This document shows, piece after piece, positions 2,208 through 42,107 of a stretch of DNA of 64,000 nucleotides. The translations under genes were made by a program, and so were the position numbers. The stretch spans positions 4,639-68,638 of the forward strand of contig JBDRNU010000026.1 in the NCBI GenBank assembly GCA_043810775.1. Direction: 5' to 3'. Every line of letters begins with the position of its first letter. The first letter of the stretch is position 1. The notes under the pieces were generated by a model. The model was not told where the DNA came from. It ran no database searches and was given only the letters and a program-made list of their open reading frames with translations. The DNA is from an archaeon. Lineage in GTDB: Archaea; Nanobdellota; Nanobdellia; Pacearchaeales; GW2011-AR1.

Positions 2208-2465
2208 TTATTTTTTTAAGCCGGCTACCAGCTTATCAGTATCTTTTTCTATTTCAGAAACTGCATCCTGAATAGCTTTTTTAGGAGTCTTGTTTTTAGT
2301 CTTTATTTTTAAAATAGGGTTTTTAGTAGGGTGCTCTCTTTTCCAAGCTGCAAAACTAACACTCTCATCTTTATTTAAATACACTCTTAAAAGTTCAACT
2401 ATAGTCATATTGCTAATTTCAATTTCAGCTTCAGTCTTATCTTCTTTTAAATATTTAATTTCCAT
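2208..2465 (-). CDS. rpoL: DNA-directed RNA polymerase subunit L (Rpo11)
   Basis: MEIKYLKEDKTEAEIEISNMTIVELLRVYLNKDESVSFAAWKREHPTKNPILKIKT matches the Rpo11/RpoL pattern. I prefer the ATG at 2465 over the track start at 2513, because a TTTATAAA box lies about 25 nt upstream of 2465. Confidence 0.75.
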   Translation of the reverse strand: MEIKYLKEDKTEAEIEISNMTIVELLRVYLNKDESVSFAAWKREHPTKNPILKIKTKNKTPKKAIQDAVSEIEKDTDKLVAGLKK

Positions 2466-2486: not shown

Positions 2487-2494
2487 TTTATAAA
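2487..2494 (-). promoter_or_regulatory. TATA-box-like TTTATAAA, putative rpoL promoter (near-leaderless)
   Basis: Palindromic TTTATAAA centred about 25 nt upstream of the rpoL ATG at 2465. The same motif sits at similar distance upstream of other genes here (for example 55666-55673 before aIF1A). Confidence 0.4.
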
Positions 2495-2518
2495 GCTTAT
2501 TGTAGCTGAACATTAACT
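2489..2518. repeat. 30-nt perfect direct repeat, copy 1 (flanks element copy A)
   Basis: TATAAAGCTTATTGTAGCTGAACATTAACT is identical to 2600-2629. Confidence 0.9.
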
Positions 2519-2600
2519 AACTCTATGCAGGGAGTTAATTCAGTGGGCTAATATCTCTGATTTAGTCCCGCTCTTTGGCAACCTTTGGAAAAGGTTGACT
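2515..2600. mobile_element. Hairpin-rich non-coding repeat element, copy A (86 nt; MITE/SINE-like or structured RNA)
   Basis: Starts AACTAACTCTATGCAGGGAGTTAAT and ends AAAGGTTGACT, homologous to 5337-5430 and 41759-41905. Three predicted hairpins and no ORF. Confidence 0.55.
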
Positions 2601-2629
2601 ATAAAGCTTATTGTAGCTGAACATTAACT
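2600..2629. repeat. 30-nt perfect direct repeat, copy 2
   Basis: Identical to 2489-2518. Lies directly after the stop codon (2631-2633) of the upstream minus-strand gene. Confidence 0.9.
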
Positions 2630-2630
2630 T

Positions 2631-3440
2631 TTAATCATCCAAGAACTCAATCTGCCCTACCTCCTCCCCACCCTCCAGCTCAATCTCGCTACTCTCTTCA
2701 TCTTTAAATTCAGGAATTTCTTCAATTTCAGCTTTTTGCCTCTCCAGTTTCATTCTCTGCAAGTCTGCGATAGTAATTGTTTTCAGCGAGTTATTATCAA
2801 AATTTAAAACCCTCGCAGGTTTTCTAACTGCTTCAATTCTTTCCTGCTCTTTTTGAAACTCTTTTTTCCTTAAGAATATACCAAAATACTGCTCTAACTT
2901 ATTTATAATTCTGTCACCATCTCCTGGCAAGTCTCCGCTTTCAATCATTTTCACTGCCTCTTCTGACTCACCTAAAGCATCACTTACTTGTTTTAAAGTC
3001 AGGTGCTTTTTTCTTCTCGCTGCCTGAATATGCCAGTGGAAATTATCCACAAGATATAAAGGCTTATTTCTAGCTATACTCTGTTGCCTTTTAATTTCAA
3101 AACTAGGCTTATCATAATTCTTAGCCTTAGTCAGCTTGTCTAAAGTAAGTTTAACCTTATCCTCTGTCTTACTGGCCGGAAGCCCAGCCATTCTGCTAAG
3201 TCTCTGATAAACAGTATAAGGCTTATCAGTCTCCCTTAACTGATAAGAAGTAGGTTTCCTGATAATAGGAATTTCTTCAACTAGCGCACACTCTTCACAA
3301 ATCCTAACTATCTCATCGCCATCAATTGCATCAAGAAGTCTGACTTCTTCTTCATCCCTTAGGCATCTGAAACACTGTTCCATAGCTGAGCTAAAAGGAT
3401 TTAGCTTATTAATATTACTATAATGCAAAACATATGTCAA
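2631..3440 (-). CDS. Zinc-ribbon plus XRE-type HTH protein (MBF1-like), acidic C-terminal tail
   Basis: CFRC...CEEC zinc ribbon near the N-terminus and HLTLKQVSDALGESEEAVKMIESGDLP HTH. The real start may be the internal MEQCFRC at about 3383. Confidence 0.55.
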   Translation of the reverse strand: MTYVLHYSNINKLNPFSSAMEQCFRCLRDEEEVRLLDAIDGDEIVRICEECALVEEIPIIRKPTSYQLRETDKPYTVYQRLSRMAGLPASKTEDKVKLTLDKLTKAKNYDKPSFEIKRQQSIARNKPLYLVDNFHWHIQAARRKKHLTLKQVSDALGESEEAVKMIESGDLPGDGDRIINKLEQYFGIFLRKKEFQKEQERIEAVRKPARVLNFDNNSLKTITIADLQRMKLERQKAEIEEIPEFKDEESSEIELEGGEEVGQIEFLDD

Positions 3441-3446
3441 CTAGAT

Positions 3447-4106
3447 TTATTTAAGTAAATTCTCCACTTCTTCAACACTCATTAGTTCTGTAATCTGGTA
3501 TTTTTCATCTATCAATAAGCAAGGAACCTCACTAATATTATATTTAGCCATTAACAAATCCAGCGAATCAACTTGCAAGTCAGTTGCAATAGGAATCAGC
3601 AAGATTTCGTTGCCTCTCTTTTCCTTTAAATCAAGAGCAATTTTGGAAAAAACATTTTGAAAAGACTTAGTCTGAATTGGAGTATCCTCATAATCATATA
3701 AATAAACTACAGTATGAAAGCTATCATCACAGTTTTCCTTTATCTTAATGCTATTTACCCACAGCATAGTTCTAAGAATATCATATCTCTTATGGGCAAT
3801 TTTCAGTTCATCACTAATTTTACTGGAAGAATCATAATCCTCCAAAGTTCTGGCTTCCCAGTAAATCCTGTCAGCAAATTCAACATTTTTTTTCACAGCT
3901 AGTTCACAATCAAGATTAAAATCAGAAAATAAGTCACTCTGCAGCCTTAAGTCCATTAAATCTACCTGAGAATCTAAATAAAGATAATCCACTCTCTGTG
4001 TCCTAAAATTCTCAACTAAAGCCCCTATAAGCATTCCAAAGAAAAAAATCAGCATTGCTACTAGTAAAGCCTGCCAAAACACGTGCTTTTGATTTTTAAC
4101 TACCAT
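3447..4106 (-). CDS. Membrane-anchored hypothetical protein
   Basis: 219 aa with one N-terminal TM helix (ALLVAMLIFFFGMLIGALV). Overlaps the upstream GT2 stop by 7 nt. Confidence 0.5.
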   Translation of the reverse strand: MVVKNQKHVFWQALLVAMLIFFFGMLIGALVENFRTQRVDYLYLDSQVDLMDLRLQSDLFSDFNLDCELAVKKNVEFADRIYWEARTLEDYDSSSKISDELKIAHKRYDILRTMLWVNSIKIKENCDDSFHTVVYLYDYEDTPIQTKSFQNVFSKIALDLKEKRGNEILLIPIATDLQVDSLDLLMAKYNISEVPCLLIDEKYQITELMSVEEVENLLK

Positions 4107-5326
4107 TTGTATTTCTTCCTAGCTAGCCTGTAAACTGCAAAAACTAAAAGTATAGGTATTGCAGTTAAATACACTAAAGTATAAAACACAAGGTTAAAAT
4201 AATTTTCCTTTTTCAACTGGTCTTCTTTCATAACCCTTAATGAAAAAAGAGTGAAAAACAATCCAAGAATAAATAGCATTATTCCAAAATAAATTAAAAT
4301 TGAAGGTGTCAAGTTTAAATCCTGCATAGTCAAAATAGCTGTCTGGGCATAAATTGAATAAGAAGTTGAAAGATAAGCTTTTAAAATCCTCTGCAAAAAC
4401 AAGTAAGTAAATAATCCCAGCCCAAACAATCCTAAAAAAAGAGATACAACAAAAAATGGCAGAATAAAATACCCCAGCATGTTTCTCCTGAAAAATATGC
4501 CTTTATACTTATTTATTGTCTGTATTCCACCCATATTCCACCTCACCCTCTGCCTAAACCACTTCTTAAAAGTAGAAGGGGCAGTAGTATAAGTTTTAGC
4601 TGCAAGGCACATCTTTGCCTTGTATCCATTATATACTAAGTGCCAGGTAACCTCAATATCCTCAGTCATATTCTTAGGATCAAAACCTCCAATCTCTCTT
4701 AAAGCTGATGCCCTGTAAATGCTCAAAGGCCCGTTAGTCACATAAACAGAATCCACATAATCCAGCATTTTTCTGGTCCATGCAATCACAGTATACTCAA
4801 AAGCCTGCAAAGTTTCAATAAACTTATTATTCTCCCTGACTAGTATGGAATTTGTAACTGCTCCAACCTTGCTGTCATTAAAAAAACCTATCATCTTTTC
4901 CATTGAGTCTTTCAAAGGATAAGAATCAGAATCAGTAACAGCCATTAGCTCTCCCTTAACTAGCTTGAGTACCTTATTCAAGCTATTAGCCTTTCCCAGA
5001 TTTTTCCCATTATCAACTAGTATCAAATTTTTATACTCTTTTTTTAGTTTAAGTATAATTTCTTTTGTCTTGTCAATAGAGCCGTCATTTATCACAATCA
5101 CTTCATATAAAGGATAAGTTGAGTCAAATACATGCCTGATTGTAGTCTCAATTGTCTCTTCTTCATTATAAGCTGGAATAACTACACTTAGCCTGTATTT
5201 CTTTCTAGCTCTTGGATAATCAAAAAGAGTTTTTCTATTTTTAAGATAAATTAAAATAAAAAAACTCATCATATAAATTCCAATGAACATATACGCTAAA
5301 TATATAATAGTAAGTATCTCTACCAT
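4100..5326 (-). CDS. Family 2 glycosyltransferase, processive-type membrane enzyme
   Basis: VVIPAYNEEETI, INDGSIDKT, TDSD and QRVRW (QxxRW) motifs, plus N- and C-terminal TM helices. Confidence 0.85.
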   Translation of the reverse strand: MVEILTIIYLAYMFIGIYMMSFFILIYLKNRKTLFDYPRARKKYRLSVVIPAYNEEETIETTIRHVFDSTYPLYEVIVINDGSIDKTKEIILKLKKEYKNLILVDNGKNLGKANSLNKVLKLVKGELMAVTDSDSYPLKDSMEKMIGFFNDSKVGAVTNSILVRENNKFIETLQAFEYTVIAWTRKMLDYVDSVYVTNGPLSIYRASALREIGGFDPKNMTEDIEVTWHLVYNGYKAKMCLAAKTYTTAPSTFKKWFRQRVRWNMGGIQTINKYKGIFFRRNMLGYFILPFFVVSLFLGLFGLGLFTYLFLQRILKAYLSTSYSIYAQTAILTMQDLNLTPSILIYFGIMLFILGLFFTLFSLRVMKEDQLKKENYFNLVFYTLVYLTAIPILLVFAVYRLARKKYKW

Positions 5327-5336
5327 TTTGAATATT
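5321..5336. repeat. 16-nt perfect direct repeat, copy 1 (contains the GT2 start codon)
   Basis: TACCATTTTGAATATT is identical to 5431-5446. On the minus strand it reads AATATTCAAAATGGTA, with the ATG at 5326. Confidence 0.9.
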
Positions 5337-5430
5337 AACTAACTCTATGCAGGGAGTTAATGAGGTGAGGTAATATCTTACATCAGTAAGATTTAGTCTC
5401 GCTGTTTGCCAAGCTTTATAAAGCTTGACT
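5337..5430. mobile_element. Hairpin-rich non-coding repeat element, copy B (94 nt)
   Basis: The first 25 nt match copy A exactly. Internal 7-bp hairpin ATCTTAC-ATCA-GTAAGAT and terminal palindrome CAAGCTTTATAAAGCTTG followed by ACT. Confidence 0.55.
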
Positions 5431-5446
5431 TACCATTTTGAATATT
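5431..5446. repeat. 16-nt perfect direct repeat, copy 2
   Basis: Identical to 5321-5336. Confidence 0.9.
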
Positions 5447-5503
5447 GAAATATCCCCAGTCTAAATTTATTCTTTTTTCTCTTCTTCTTTCTGTCAGAAA
5501 TAC

Positions 5504-20959: not shown

Positions 20960-21967
20960 TTAATCCTTTATTTTTGTAAACAAAATCTGTGCCTTTTTAA
21001 TTTTTTGTATGCTAATTGGCTTGTTAATTTCCTCAATCCCTATCTTAAATCCAAAATGCTTGGCTATCTTCTCACTAGTCTCAGGAATAAAAGGATAAAG
21101 CAAAATAGAAATTGCCTTAATGCTGTCAACTAATTCATATAGCTTCTTTGAATCTCCGCTTTCCCATAGCTTATTTTTCTGAACATACTCATTGCAAATG
21201 TCAATAAACGCAAAAATCTCATTTAACGCCTTGTCAAACTGATAGCTGTCAACTAATTTGATTATTTTTTTTAATTTTAATTTTCCAAGCAGCTTGTTTT
21301 GAGTTTTCTCGACGCCAAATTTCTCCCCCAAAGCACTGACTCTTGAAATCAAATTTCCCAGCTTGTTCGCAAGCTCATTATTATGCCTGTCAACTAAAGA
21401 TTGCTCTGAAAAATCTCCATCATCTCCAAAAGGAGTTCCCCTAAACAAGAAATATCTTGCAGAATCAACACCAGCAATTCCAATTAGCTCATCAACATTA
21501 ATTACCTTGCCCCTAGATTTTGAGATTTTTTCCTTATCAAAAGTCCACCAACCATGAGCAAAAACATTTTTAGGAAGTTCTATTCCTGCTGACATTAACA
21601 TAGCAGGCCAGTATACAGTATGAAACCATATAATATCTTTCCCAATCAAGTGAACATCTGCAGGCCAGAATTTTTCTTTTCCTTTTTGCCTAGATGCAGA
21701 ATAATAATTAAGCAATGCGTCAAACCAGACATAAGCCACATGCTTCTTATCAAATGGAAGAGAAACTCCCCAGTCAAAACCTATCCTAGAAATGCTAAAA
21801 TCTTGTAATCCCTCCTTAACTCTGTTAATAATTTCATTTTCTCTTGACTTAGGCAAAATAAATCCGGTTTTATATAAATCAAGAAGCTTTTTCTGATACT
21901 TGCTTAACTTAAAAAAATAGCTGTCTTCCTTTAGTTTATCAACTTTCTCTTGTGTATTGGACAGCAC
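20960..21967 (-). CDS. metG: Methionyl-tRNA synthetase, C-terminal portion (KMSKS and anticodon-binding domain)
   Basis: EDSYFFKLSKY, KISKSRG and WWTFDKEKISKS. Frame differs by one nt from the N-terminal portion, with a 37-nt overlap. Confidence 0.85.
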   Translation of the reverse strand: MLSNTQEKVDKLKEDSYFFKLSKYQKKLLDLYKTGFILPKSRENEIINRVKEGLQDFSISRIGFDWGVSLPFDKKHVAYVWFDALLNYYSASRQKGKEKFWPADVHLIGKDIIWFHTVYWPAMLMSAGIELPKNVFAHGWWTFDKEKISKSRGKVINVDELIGIAGVDSARYFLFRGTPFGDDGDFSEQSLVDRHNNELANKLGNLISRVSALGEKFGVEKTQNKLLGKLKLKKIIKLVDSYQFDKALNEIFAFIDICNEYVQKNKLWESGDSKKLYELVDSIKAISILLYPFIPETSEKIAKHFGFKIGIEEINKPISIQKIKKAQILFTKIKD

Positions 21968-22392
21968 TCATTAACCAAATCTTTTTCAGTAAAATAAGCC
22001 TCACAATCTACACAATAATAGCCCTCATACTGCCCAAAATAAATCTCACCCCTGTCATAAATTTTCTGAATTATTTCCTGCACAACTTTTTCATGGTCAG
22101 GGTCAGTAGTCCTAATAAATCGGTCATATTGTATGTTTAATTTCTTCCACGCATCTTTGAATTTTGGTATTAGCTCGTCGACAAATTGCTTTTCTGGCTT
22201 GCCTGCTTTTTGGGCTGCATTTTGAATTTTTTTTCCATGGTCATCAGTTCCAGTAAGGAAAAATACTTCATTTCCCTTAATATGATTCCATCTAGCCAAA
22301 ACATCAGCTGCTAATGTAGTATAACCATGCCCAATATGAGGTATATCACTGGGATAATAGATGGGAGTAGTTACATAAAATTTCTTTGCCAT
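21931..22392 (-). CDS. metG: Methionyl-tRNA synthetase, N-terminal portion (HIGH and zinc knuckle)
   Basis: TTPIYYPSDIPHIGHGYT and CVDCEAYF...CCPIHKRK. Terminates five codons after the point where the other frame continues the MetRS sequence. Confidence 0.85.
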   Translation of the reverse strand: MAKKFYVTTPIYYPSDIPHIGHGYTTLAADVLARWNHIKGNEVFFLTGTDDHGKKIQNAAQKAGKPEKQFVDELIPKFKDAWKKLNIQYDRFIRTTDPDHEKVVQEIIQKIYDRGEIYFGQYEGYYCVDCEAYFTEKDLVNECCPIHKRKLIN

Positions 22393-27011: not shown

Positions 27012-29726
27012 TTATGCGCCAGGTCCATCTACTTCACCACCGCCAAATTTCGGTTTATGCCCTTTTCCCTTAAATAATTTGCTTGCTCCACAAGTTTCAC
27101 CAATTATTACAACAGGAGTAAGCAGGGTTTCTACACACTGCCTTGTCTCATCTAACCCATCAACACTGTCATTTGGCGCGTTTCTTCCATTAAAAACATC
27201 TTCAGGGCAAACTAATTCACCTTCCTTAAAAGGCACCTGCCCGTCAATATTATCAGTATTATAGTAAACAACTGGCAAGCCAGATAAACGATAACTTAGT
27301 GGTAATCTAGAGTCAATTAATTCTCCCAAATCCATATCAGAACCTAAAACCCTGCTTGCAGCATCTCCGCCAATCCCATTTGATTGAACAACTCTTAATG
27401 GAAATTCAACCACAGCTCCAACACCCTGGGAAAAATTATATCTTCTACTATTTTCATCTGCACCTATTCTAATTGCCAGCTCAGGAATATCCCATACCCC
27501 TTGCACTACACTATTTCCTGCATTTGTTATAGCTCCAAAACCATACCAAACATTGCCTAATGTTCCACCTATTAAATCTCTGATAAATGCTTCATAACCT
27601 ATATTGTAAATGCCTCTTCCAGTGCTAGTAAAAACATGCCCTACTCTCTCAATTCCTCTTGGCTTGTCAGCTCCTATAGGTGGAACTATTCCAAATGTAA
27701 CACCGCTTAAAATATTCACTGCTCCCTTGCCAGTATCTAAAAGAGTATTTTTAGGAACAACTATTAGTTCATTTACACCAGCTTCTATTAATCCTGTTCT
27801 TCCATAAGGCTTTACCATTAAACCTTCTTCTGTTATAATAGACTGATTTGCGCCTGGCCCAATATCTAAAAGTGCATTTCCAAAATTGCCTAAAGGAGAA
27901 TCAGGAAGTGCTGTTCTCTCTTCATTAAAATATTTTTTTAATCCCACACTATCAACACAAGCACATAATCCTTCTGCTTGAGCTATTACTGGAGGTTCTG
28001 GAACAACTATCATAGGGGGCTCTGAAAATACATCCTCATTTCCACCAGCTCCACCTTTTTCACATCCATTAATAATATCAGTTAATTCTGCACTAGTTGC
28101 TTTTCTTAAAGAAGGTAATAGATTAATATTAAACTCTCCTGTGCAAGGATGCAGTGCAATATAATTTTCTCTGTCTGGCACAACACCAAAATACTCAGCT
28201 AAGCAGGCTCTTGATACAACATTTGACTCTACTTCCTTTCTCTTTAGCTCATCAACTACACTATTGAGGTCACTAGGTAAATTGCCCCCATTACTAGAAA
28301 GCTTGCAATTATCAAATTCTGCCTTAGCTAGTGAAGCTGGCTGTTGAGAATAAATATCTTGAGCTTCCTGGCTTGATTTTGCAACTTGCTCAACTGCTGC
28401 CTGCTCAACTACTGATTCAATTCCGCCTGCTGGTGGAATGCTACTATCTTTAGGTTCAGGAAAATATCCACTAAAATTTTCAGAAAAATCATTGCCAACT
28501 ATATTAGAAACTTCAGAAGAATAAACATCTTGAGCAGCTTGAATTTGAGATGCTGTATTTTCAATTATCATCTCTTCAGCTCTGCTTTCAGAAACAAGAG
28601 GAGTCATTGGATTTCTAGCATCATCCCAAGAAATTTCACCAGCTTCCATTTTTCTATTCCACTCATGCACTACATCCATATACTCCCTCTGATTAAAACT
28701 ATTAGCTACATCTTCTAGCTTTTCACTTACATAATTTGCTGCAGCTTCTGCTACATTTCCAATATCACCTGCCCAAGCTTTTGCACCAATATAATCACCT
28801 AAACTAGCTCCTAGTTTTTTTATCCTATTCATTACTCCCCCCAAACCACCCATTCCAGCTTTAGCAATTCTAGTTTCTTCTGTTTTAGGCTTGCTGTCCC
28901 CTATTCTAATTTCTTCATGATTGCTAAGATTTCCAGAAGCATACAATCCCAAGCTTAGCGCACCTCCAACAAATAATCCAGCAGCAATCTGCCCAGCTCT
29001 TGTATCTAAAGCTTTGCTAATAATTCCTCTTCTTCTATTAGATGTTTTGCCACCCTCAATAATTTCTAACCTTTGAGAAGGATTTTTTCTTAATTCAGCC
29101 TCTAAACTAACATGATTCATAGAATTATAAGTATCCATTTCATCAGGACTTAAATCACTTTTTTCACAAATAGCATATGAACATATCTCATTGCTTGCAG
29201 GATGAGGAATTCTGTAAACTAATCCTTCTTCTAGCTTTGCAAAAGGCTCTGCTGTCAATCCAAGACATTCACCTATTGAAAATTGAGCTGTTGATTCACT
29301 ATTAGAATCAGGTACACTTTGAGCATACTCAATCTCACCTTTAGCTTCTTTTAGCTGTCTATAAATAGTAGAAGTTGATGCATTAGTCATCCTGGCAATA
29401 TCTCTAACAGAAATATTCTCTTCTCTTAATTTATGAATATTCATAATATCATCATACCAGAATCTATCAGAAGTATTTACCTGCATCCCTTGATCTTTTG
29501 CATCCTTAACAATTCTCTTTACAGCATAAGAAGTTAAGCCAGTTCCCCAAGAAACAGCATCATACAAACTATCTAATTTTCCATGATACTTTCTCTGCTC
29601 ATTGCAGTAGCTGACAACATCATCTTTTATCTTTTCAGAAATAGCTCTTGAGCTTCTTCTAGAATCAAGTTCTTTAAATCCGTCATAAGACACTAAACTA
29701 GTCTTACTATCCTTTCCCTTAGTCAT
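27012..29726 (-). CDS. Membrane-tethered protein: N-terminal HTH region, one TM helix, about 640-aa C-terminal domain of unknown family
   Basis: ISVRDIARMTNASTSTIYRQLKEAKG (resolvase/Psq-like HTH) near aa 108. TM helix AGQIAAGLFVGGALSLGLYASG near aa 247. The rest is Gly/Ala/Val-rich and unlike neighbouring genes. Confidence 0.6.
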   Translation of the reverse strand: MTKGKDSKTSLVSYDGFKELDSRRSSRAISEKIKDDVVSYCNEQRKYHGKLDSLYDAVSWGTGLTSYAVKRIVKDAKDQGMQVNTSDRFWYDDIMNIHKLREENISVRDIARMTNASTSTIYRQLKEAKGEIEYAQSVPDSNSESTAQFSIGECLGLTAEPFAKLEEGLVYRIPHPASNEICSYAICEKSDLSPDEMDTYNSMNHVSLEAELRKNPSQRLEIIEGGKTSNRRRGIISKALDTRAGQIAAGLFVGGALSLGLYASGNLSNHEEIRIGDSKPKTEETRIAKAGMGGLGGVMNRIKKLGASLGDYIGAKAWAGDIGNVAEAAANYVSEKLEDVANSFNQREYMDVVHEWNRKMEAGEISWDDARNPMTPLVSESRAEEMIIENTASQIQAAQDVYSSEVSNIVGNDFSENFSGYFPEPKDSSIPPAGGIESVVEQAAVEQVAKSSQEAQDIYSQQPASLAKAEFDNCKLSSNGGNLPSDLNSVVDELKRKEVESNVVSRACLAEYFGVVPDRENYIALHPCTGEFNINLLPSLRKATSAELTDIINGCEKGGAGGNEDVFSEPPMIVVPEPPVIAQAEGLCACVDSVGLKKYFNEERTALPDSPLGNFGNALLDIGPGANQSIITEEGLMVKPYGRTGLIEAGVNELIVVPKNTLLDTGKGAVNILSGVTFGIVPPIGADKPRGIERVGHVFTSTGRGIYNIGYEAFIRDLIGGTLGNVWYGFGAITNAGNSVVQGVWDIPELAIRIGADENSRRYNFSQGVGAVVEFPLRVVQSNGIGGDAASRVLGSDMDLGELIDSRLPLSYRLSGLPVVYYNTDNIDGQVPFKEGELVCPEDVFNGRNAPNDSVDGLDETRQCVETLLTPVVIIGETCGASKLFKGKGHKPKFGGGEVDGPGA

Positions 29727-41758: not shown

Positions 41759-41905
41759 AACTAACTCTATGCAGGAAGTTAATGTGGTGAGGTAATATCT
41801 TACATCAGTAAGATTTAGTCTCGCCTCTTCAGAATTCCTTTGAATTCTGAGAGTCGTCAAGAATCTTTGATTCTTGAGATTTGCCAAGCTTTTTAAAGCT
41901 TGACT
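41759..41905. mobile_element. Hairpin-rich non-coding repeat element, copy C (147 nt, extended), abutting tRNA-Ile
   Basis: Same termini as copies A and B (AACTAACTCTATGCAGGAAGTTAAT ... AAAGCTTGACT). A 56-nt internal block adds two extra hairpins. It ends 1 nt from the tRNA-Ile 3' end. Confidence 0.55.
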
Positions 41906-41906
41906 A

Positions 41907-41994
41907 TGAGCCTGCACGGATTTGAACCGTGGACCCCTGCCTGTCTGAGTTTACATATCAGAGCAGTGCTCTAACCTGGCTGAGCTACAGGCTC
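41907..41994 (-). tRNA. tRNA-Ile (anticodon GAU) with a 13-nt intron at the canonical 37/38 position
   Basis: Manual fold: acceptor GAGCCTG/CAGGCTC, D arm GCTC-AGCCAGGTTA-GAGC, anticodon stem CTGCT/GGCAG enclosing 20 nt (7-nt loop CTGATAA plus intron TGTAAACTCAGAC), T arm CACGG-TTCAAAT-CCGTG. Confidence 0.8.
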
Positions 41995-42107
41995 ATAAGT
42001 CTGTAGAAAGCATAAACTCTCAAACTACTACAGGCTCATAAAGAAACAACTTTTCTACCATTTAAAATACTTACGATTATAGAAAAGTAAAAAAATAAAA
42101 GAAAAAG

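Follow-up and report, generated by a model that had tools for sequence, protein, structure and literature searches.

The genomes of DPANN archaea are tiny and densely packed, and their mobile DNA is poorly known. Most of the enzymes that make staggered cuts in a target, of the DDE or the Cas1 type, need inverted terminal repeats at the ends of the element. Among the described systems, the IS1202 group of bacteria comprises elements of 1.5 kb with inverted repeats of 24-26 bp (TGT...ACA) and a TnsB-like DDE transposase, and its target duplications measure 16-28 bp (PMC10132070). The archaeal casposons have duplications of 1-27 nt (median 15), which arise by fill-in of widely staggered nicks, and they are frequently inserted at tRNA 3' ends (PMC4046053). 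Replitron-1, a eukaryotic HUH transposon, combines a fixed target motif with duplications of variable length (PMC10288648).

We analysed a 64-kb stretch of DNA (hereafter the window) from an uncultivated archaeon that its genes identify as DPANN-type; these include MCM, TBP, L15e, DisA and eRF1 and find their best protein matches in MAGs of Pacearchaeota/Nanoarchaeota. The window carries, upstream of rpoL and at two other sites, a hairpin element that resembles several known systems in part. Like prokaryotic MITEs, the element is small (84-147 nt), non-coding, intergenic, multi-copy and structured, is flanked by target duplications, and differs in presence between related genomes, where empty sites are found. 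Unlike MITEs, it has no terminal inverted repeats, its duplications measure 16-30 nt instead of the usual 2-10, and neither the 64-kb window nor the roughly 105 kb of loci from relatives yielded a parent IS with the same ends. The original prediction had called the duplication far longer than the 2-10 bp of IS and MITE insertions; the lengths seen here agree with this, but the comparison overlooked the IS1202 group (16-28) and the casposons (1-27) (PMC10132070, PMC4046053).

With the IS200/IS605-derived PATE and with REP/BIME, the element shares asymmetric ends without inverted repeats, subterminal hairpins, a strand and orientation bias, a left end at a short 5' target motif, and one copy (copy C, below) that is free of duplication. 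Target duplications are absent from those families; here, four of the five clean copies have long ones, and there is no TnpA or RAYT gene among the 37 window proteins scanned against Pfam. Only the range of duplication lengths recalls the IS1202 group: the ends here are AACT... and ...GACT, they form no inverted repeats, and no DDE domain occurs in the window proteins in the same scan. Casposons are large and have Cas1, PolB, inverted repeats and near-constant duplications of about 14-15 nt, unlike this non-coding element of 84-147 nt, which has none of these and whose duplications range from 0 to 30 nt. As in Replitron-1 and in SINEs, one junction lies at a short motif in fixed orientation while the other varies, and inverted repeats are lacking. 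Replitrons and SINEs are, however, eukaryotic, the former with terminal direct repeats and 'fuzzy' ends, the latter with tails and a LINE reverse transcriptase. Here, the duplications vary and the 3' junction motif is constant; the element has no tail and no match to a tRNA or to Rfam, and neither the window nor the loci of relatives yielded a reverse transcriptase. The combination of absent inverted repeats, three conserved hairpins and duplications of 16-30 nt is the signature of no characterised transposase, and the mobilising enzyme may therefore be new.

The direct repeat and the promoter of rpoL

The 30-mer TATAAAGCTTATTGTAGCTGAACATTAACT is present at both 2489-2518 and 2600-2629, as an exact direct repeat around the hairpin element, just as had been predicted. 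These are its only matches in the 64-kb window, even with up to three mismatches, and a two-match result was obtained in 0 of 100 shuffles. The expected number of exact 30-nt repeats at most 400 nt apart is about 6e-10 in 64 kb of window composition. Other direct repeats of at least 13 nt, spaced by 40-400 nt in the window, all lie inside coding repeats except for the 5' duplication of tRNA-Ile. The 81 nt between the 30-mers (2519-2599) have 43% GC, against 33.5% window-wide. The element at this site, copy A, folds into three hairpins (z = -3.3 as RNA and -4.9 as DNA, relative to shuffled controls). The features of the locus are the following:

2208-2465, minus strand: rpoL (RNA polymerase subunit L), 85 aa, starting with MEIKY (PF13656, RNA_pol_L_2, E = 1.9e-14)
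2487-2494, minus strand: rpoL TATA box TTTATAAA, beginning 29 nt before the ATG
2489-2518: promoter-proximal copy of the 30-nt repeat (duplication proper probably 2490-2514)
2515-2600, plus strand: element copy A, 86 nt by the termini of copies B and C; covariance model score 76.7 bits
2518-2537, 2542-2572 and 2579-2597, plus strand: hairpins H1, H2 and H3 of copy A
2600-2629: distal copy of the 30-nt repeat, starting 1 nt past the stop codon of the aMBF1-like gene
2631-3383, minus strand: upstream aMBF1-like HTH gene (HTH_3 match; some homologues are named aMBF1), stop codon at 2631-2633

The duplication had been given as 30 nt. The repeat is exact over this length, but the duplication proper is more likely 25-26 nt, judging by the termini of copies B and C and of a related copy in locus L023 of a relative. 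The extra T and AACT at the flanks of copy A would then be identities between element ends and flanks (1 nt and 4 nt), and the same bases make the exact junction ambiguous, as the original prediction had recognised. If the whole 30-nt repeat were counted as target, copy A would be 81 nt long (2519-2599). The distal 30-nt copy closes with TTTATA joined to the element (TTTATAgtcaacc).

Along the minus strand, a single base separates the stop codon of the aMBF1-like gene from the distal repeat; the element, the proximal repeat, AACTAATTTTTCAGAGTATTAAT and the ATG of rpoL then follow in turn. This ATG lies at 2465, and the orthologues in relatives begin at the same ATGGAA. An in-frame ATG at 2513 lets gene callers stretch rpoL to 101 aa. 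The insertion point of copy A is between the sixth and the seventh base of the rpoL TATA box; of the eight TATA bases, the proximal repeat provides the first six, together with the BRE. The motif upstream of rpoL, AATAAGSTTTAWAAAC, is conserved in five relatives. Across the window, 21 of 72 genes have a TTTAWA that starts at -27 to -30 relative to the ATG, against about one gene for any other position. This positional peak, with the rpoL box at -29, points to a leaderless layout, and the reading of the site as a leaderless rpoL promoter is well supported on these sequence grounds. It agrees with the claim that part of a core promoter was duplicated. The distal repeat keeps the BRE and TTTATAgt, and it may still bind TBP and act as a second promoter into the element. 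Both rpoL and the upstream aMBF1-like gene are still intact after the insertion. A decoy ORF of 20 codons, which had been noted at the distal repeat, does exist; its case is weak, since it begins upstream of the distal TATA box and has no conserved counterpart in the closest relative. Expected only in read-through transcripts of the upstream gene, and unconserved, it is unlikely to matter.

Copies of the element and their empty sites

The window was compared with loci of related genomes. Loci L016, L022 and L023 belong to the NCBI MAG GCA_043815245.1, the closest relative compared (61-75% protein identity to the window), and loci L017-L021 to more distant relatives. The gene order ValRS-eRF1-ScpB-GT-220aa-aMBF1-rpoL is conserved among the relatives. 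In L016, which has the same gene order and 61% protein identity, the spacer between the aMBF1-like gene and rpoL measures 45 nt (CTTTTCCAGCATAAGCTTTATAAACTAATTCTTCGCACTATTATT), lacks the element and has one copy of ATAAGCTTTATAAACTAATT. A single-copy empty site in a related genome was what the original prediction had proposed to look for, and its one promoter copy in L016 corresponds to the sequence that the window has beside rpoL. The spacer is also short in L017 (47 nt). In the window it measures 165 nt, of which the element plus one repeat account for 111, leaving 54. The comparison shows that copy A is an insertion which duplicated its target, in agreement with the original prediction.

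The element family has six copies at six different sites, three in the window and three in the MAG GCA_043815245.1. They are the only matches with E < 1e-4 to a covariance model searched over 168.7 kb (the 64-kb window and about 105 kb of relatives' loci). In the window, local BLAST, nhmmer and the covariance model agree on exactly three copies, each on the plus strand. Besides copy A, the relevant features of the window are:

4095-4115, minus strand: unoccupied, single-copy counterpart of the site filled by copy L016e of the relative; ATGGTAG, where the glycosyltransferase stop overlaps the start of the next gene
5321-5336: gene-proximal copy of the copy B duplication, 16-nt TACCATTTTGAATATT, including the real start codon of the glycosyltransferase gene
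5337-5430, plus strand: element copy B, 94 nt; covariance model score 66.3 bits
5431-5446: distal copy of the copy B duplication, 16-nt TACCATTTTGAATATT
41759-41905, plus strand: element copy C, 147 nt, 1 nt from the 3' end of tRNA-Ile
41826-41878, plus strand: two-hairpin module nested in copy C, homologous to a stand-alone module at 2688-2735 of L016

Copy C is 95% identical to copy B outside its internal insert, and copy A is 74-77% identical to both. The nested module of copy C and the stand-alone module of L016 differ by compensatory stem changes. The spacer between ScpB and the glycosyltransferase gene (GT), where copy B lies, measures 177 nt in the window and 12 nt in L016, and the two genes overlap by 1 nt in L017. 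The site of copy C is empty in L022, where tRNA-Ile is directly followed by CTCATGCTCGCCTTTTCGGATTTG; in the window, tRNA-Ile is followed by a T, the element and then AATGGTTCGCCTTTTGGATTTG. A flanking duplication was looked for around copy C, tRNA sequence included, and none was found. Given the simple empty site of L022, copy C is therefore an insertion without duplication.

The copies of the relative have counterparts of the same kind. L016e, of 88 nt, is bracketed by a 21-nt repeat (AGAGGAAAACTTGAATGGTAG) across the stop of GT and the start of the next gene. L023e, of 84 nt and 69% identical to copy A, is bracketed by a 25-nt repeat (GTTTTCTACCACAACAATATTTATA) upstream of the CTP synthase gene, whose promoter in the window holds the single-copy counterpart. 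The third copy is a composite of about 260 nt before eRF1, whose repeat, roughly 18 nt long, is degenerate. In the L016 contig, such an insertion has created a false small ORF, which was called as a 'gene' of 48 aa. When the window and GCA_043815245.1 are compared, each site occupied in one is matched in the other by a counterpart that is single-copy or compact. The four cleanly measurable duplications (16, 21, 25 and 25-30 nt) are all perfect, so that perfect duplications of 16-30 nt flank four of the five clean copies and copy C has none. The prediction that the duplication length differs between copies, made from the 16 nt at copy B, is thereby extended. Because perfect duplications surround diverged copies, and because presence and absence are reciprocal, we conclude that the family has been active in both lineages.

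No further copies were found by nhmmer or the covariance model in the window or in four more distant relatives. Searches of conserved 19-mers of the element against GTDB species genomes, JGI metagenomes and IMG/VR returned only chance matches or matches to unrelated coding sequence.

Hairpins, ends and insertion sites

Copies A, B and C share the termini 5'-AACTAACTC...TTGACT-3'. All simple copies have three hairpins: H1 of 6-7 bp, H2 of about 10 bp with a bulge, and H3 of 8-9 bp. Their length is 84-94 nt, excluding the composite and copy C, which reaches 147 nt with its insert. H2 has a conserved core, GTGRGSTAAT...TTAGYCYCGC, and one pair of this central stem is changed from A-T to G-C in copy A. 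The arms of H3 vary by paired changes (AAGCTT/AAGCTT, AACCTT/AAGGTT, CAAGTTC/GAACTTG and TAATCTTTT/AAAAGATTA), and so do those of H1 (TAACTC/GAGTTA, CATCAAC/GTTGATG and TTAAC/GTTAA). Because the MAFFT alignment placed the arms of H1 and H3 out of register between subfamilies, these comparisons use the arm sequences and the folds of each copy. The plus strand of the element is more stable than its complement in four of four copies, owing to G-T/G-U wobbles. The orientation is constant, all six copies being antisense to the downstream gene.

The ends show no terminal inverted repeats: when the left end AACTAACTCTATGCAGG is compared with the reverse-complemented right end AGTCAAGCTTTATAAAG, about 9 of 17 positions agree, with a gap, and the ends of the L016 and L023 copies likewise show no inverted-repeat match. 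The element has no coding capacity. In the Rfam scan of the window at gathering thresholds only four tRNAs pass and the element has no match; permissive scans of copies A and C gave only weak matches, all with E >= 0.1. A known RNA or a tRNA fragment, considered as the identity of the element, was ruled out by the Rfam scans together with ARAGORN.

In each of the copies A, B and C, the motif A(A/C)YATT directly precedes the left junction of the element; the copies of the relative do not share it. In gene orientation, GAGTTAGTT forms the 3' end of the element, and the next bases are AATGTTC in copy A, AATATTC in copy B and AATGGTTC in copy C. The other junction follows TTTATA in A and L023e, inside the TATA box in both, ATGGTA in B and ATGGTAG in L016e. 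Copies A and L023e, in different genomes, each interrupt TTTATA|A and carry a duplication of about 25 nt. The core genes hit by the family are those of rpoL, CTP synthase, a glycosyltransferase and eRF1. The insertions fall on promoters and start codons and the duplication covers the signal, so the neighbouring genes remain intact.

How the element may be mobilised

In our assessment, copy A is very probably a recent insertion of a small non-autonomous mobile element, made through staggered cuts by an enzyme supplied in trans. Such an enzyme, encoded elsewhere in the genome, would cut the two target strands 25-30 nt apart; the element would be joined in, and gap repair would copy the intervening target on both sides. 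At this site, the cut beside the H3 end would have fallen inside the rpoL TATA box, after TTTATA, and the gene-proximal copy would reconstitute the complete BRE/TATA promoter with its usual spacing to the leaderless start. In a genome with spacers of only 0-50 nt, the insertion was probably tolerated because the long duplication restored the promoter, and selection would have retained the events with this outcome. The Pfam scan of the 37 window proteins detected no transposase, reverse transcriptase, Cas1, HUH enzyme or integrase, and the precomputed Pfam marks of the relatives' loci gave no autonomous partner or candidate enzyme. The original prediction had likened the event to target-primed or casposase-like integration; no Cas1, PolB or reverse transcriptase was found in the window, and the element lacks terminal inverted repeats. 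A 904-aa protein with HTH_38 was considered as a transposase and rejected: only its 35-residue HTH matches, and it has nothing in the PDB.

That the repeat is an assembly artefact, such as a k-mer-sized false duplication around a collapsed repeat, is extremely improbable. A length of 30 nt is near common k-mer sizes, but the interior of copy A is unique (74-77% identity to B and C) and cannot be borrowed from their reads, copy B has a repeat of 16 nt, and an independent NCBI assembly has the same architecture, with repeats of 21 and 25 nt around related elements; moreover, dropping the element and one repeat restores a spacer of orthologous length and sequence. We also give very little credence to a templated patch without any transposition, in which template switching or break repair copied a hairpin sequence and re-copied 25-30 nt locally. 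Duplications of variable length, zero included, and the 1 nt and 4 nt shared between the ends of copy A and its flanks would suit it. The same precise termini recur, however, in A, B and C, copy B has no junction microhomology, the architecture is found again in a second genome, and the hairpins are conserved through compensatory changes. The element could instead derive from a staggered-cut DDE or Cas1 element that makes long duplications (IS1202 group, IS1634/IS1549 type or casposon). Its duplications of 16-30 nt match those of the IS1202 group (16-28 bp; PMC10132070) and overlap the casposon range (1-27 nt, median 15; PMC4046053), and the 3' end of a tRNA, where copy C lies, is frequently targeted by casposons. 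Against this origin, which we consider unlikely, stand the absence of inverted terminal repeats (about 9/17 with a gap in the best end-to-end comparison), ends that are not TGT...ACA, a duplication length that is not fixed within the window subfamily (0, 16, 25-30), and the failure to find a DDE, Cas1 or PolB protein in the window.

Two further explanations were considered. The element may move as ssDNA by means of an HUH-type enzyme (IS200/IS605, IS91 or Replitron-like) that recognises subterminal hairpins and joins the left end 3' of a motif, the duplications being secondary products of imprecise second-strand processing. We regard this as possible but doubtful. It would account for an element with a different hairpin at each end and no inverted terminal repeats, for the wobble-dependent stability of the plus strand in 4/4 copies, for the left junction after A(A/C)YATT in 3/3 window copies and for the antisense orientation of 6/6 copies. 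The duplication-free copy C is canonical for HUH elements, and Replitron-1 is likewise orientation-specific at a short motif with duplications of variable length (PMC10288648). Yet IS200/IS605 and IS91 make no duplications, whereas 4/5 clean copies here have 16-30 nt, the left-junction motif is not common to the copies of the relative, and no Y1 or Y2 HUH protein was found in the window. A retroposon, the archaeal counterpart of a SINE, appears decidedly unlikely: it would be transcribed in gene orientation and copied into a nicked target by target-primed reverse transcription, with a variable second-strand nick giving duplications of 0-30 nt. A transcript shared with tRNA-Ile, from which RNase Z would free the element, is one way in which copy C could be expressed. 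Duplications that vary in length and are sometimes zero fit this scheme, as does a gene-orientation 3' end, GAGTTAGTT, that always abuts AATRTTC in A and B while the 5' junction is the variable one; AATGGTTC of copy C could be the downstream flank of the source copy itself. A, B and L023e lie directly behind a promoter or transcription start, a placement that would ensure the transcription of new copies. Nonetheless, no reverse transcriptase was found in the window or the relatives' loci, there are no 3' tails or 5'-truncated copies, and the wobble pairs favour the folding of the opposite strand. SINE-like retroposons are not known in archaea.

For the insertion by a trans-acting enzyme that we prefer, copy C, being without duplication, indicates that widely staggered cleavage is not obligatory. 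A classical DDE or Cas1 enzyme fits poorly with an element that has asymmetric hairpin ends and no inverted repeats, with its strand asymmetry and fixed orientation, and with a copy C free of duplication; these features favour a sequential process based on single strands or hairpins, HUH-like or target-primed. As a tentative proposal, this could be an undescribed archaeal system in which a hairpin-recognising enzyme, of the ssDNA type or a reverse transcriptase, attaches one end of the element beside a short motif and cleaves the opposite strand at a distance of 16-30 nt. Insertions in TATA boxes and start codons would regenerate these signals, and the element would capture promoters in the ultra-compact genomes of DPANN archaea, each new copy being placed behind a duplicated promoter.

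In practice, such insertions give rise to false small ORFs, as in the 48-aa gene of L016 and the rpoL extended to 101 aa. The family also illustrates a route to tandem promoters and structured 5' leaders. The long duplications rebuild the promoters and start codons of core genes, which suggests that the element can in this way persist in genomes with almost no neutral DNA.

Promoters around the inserted elements

The insertion of copy B of the three-hairpin element (window 5326-5503) has widened by 110 nt the distance between the glycosyltransferase gene's own TATA box, AATAAATTTAGA, and the real ATG. A TATA is no longer present at -29 of this start codon; the distal repeat copy at the same insertion offers a six-codon ORF, ATGGTAAGTCAAGCTTTATAA. 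Copies B and C each have a third hairpin (H3; CAAGCTTTATAAAGCTTG and CAAGCTTTTTAAAGCTTG) that forms a palindromic version of the genome's consensus BRE/TATA promoter, TAAGSTTTAWA, and that could act as a bidirectional promoter. The H3 of copy A, and that of the relative's copy upstream of CTP synthase, are non-TATA.

Promoter-like third hairpins in the window
5408-5425, H3 of copy B
41883-41900, H3 of copy C

Three more distant relatives have 85-130 nt between the ATG of rpoL and its conserved promoter motif. The gap between motif and ATG is filled by unrelated hairpins in all three, which also carry a second A/T-rich box close to the ATG, and CTCTATGCAG is present on the gene strand of the L021 upstream region. 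These stretches may be structured leaders, or they may stem from earlier insertions at this position.

Far-upstream rpoL promoter motifs in distant relatives
L018 10823-11015
L019 10865-11016
L021 3393-3510

The two-hairpin module and the eRF1 region

Copy C contains a nested module of two hairpins (TCAGAAnnC...GnnTTCTGA, then TCAAnAATC...GATTnTTGA), which stands alone between convergent genes in L016, a locus of the nearest relative (GCA_043815245.1). Because the differences between the L016 and window stems are compensatory changes, the module appears to be a second small unit, either mobile or terminator-like.

Occurrences of the two-hairpin module
L016 2688-2735, stand-alone, between convergent genes
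Window 41826-41878, nested in copy C

In the same relative, a called 48-aa "gene" before eRF1 (L016 1306-1452, the same region as L023 12627-12773) very probably arose through mistaken annotation: it consists of an upstream duplicate of the eRF1 start, now decayed (ATGGCAGAAGA, compared with ATGGTAGAAGA), that continues into a hairpin-element composite. The eRF1 gene of the distant relative L018 (4152-6524) harbours an intein with a LAGLIDADG endonuclease, as judged from precomputed Pfam marks; with the intein the protein reaches 790 aa, compared with ~360 aa elsewhere.

Two further genes of the window

The methionyl-tRNA synthetase gene lies in two frames that overlap at ~21931-21967: either it carries a frameshift or is a pseudogene, or the sequence is in error here. 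Much of the 904-aa protein encoded next to tRNA-Gly consists of Gly-, Ala- and Ser-rich stretches of low complexity; the protein's sole match is to a short HTH_38 domain (IS30-type helix-turn-helix), and a comparison with the PDB gave no match.

Coding features
20960-22392, minus strand, split methionyl-tRNA synthetase (N-terminal part 153 aa, C-terminal ORF 335 aa)
27012-29726, minus strand, 904-aa protein

The tRNA-Ile locus

The window tRNA-Ile(GAU) (41906-41995, minus strand), whose anticodon was miscalled by ARAGORN, carries a 13-nt insert, TGTAAACTCAGAC, directly 3' of the anticodon. Its orthologue in L022, a locus of the nearest relative, is 76 nt long and devoid of this insert. A short canonical intron, acquired in one genome or lost from the other, is the probable explanation. 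In both genomes, the first 10 bases of the tRNA and 2-4 bases upstream of them have a second copy just upstream of the gene.

Leader repeats of tRNA-Ile
Window 41985-41998 and 42028-42041, 14 nt, copies 29 nt apart
L022 8783-8794 and 8855-8866, 12 nt, with 60 nt of hairpins in between

The two leader inserts show homology in their 3' parts, and the arrangement resembles a small insertion of older date that duplicated its target in the tRNA leader.
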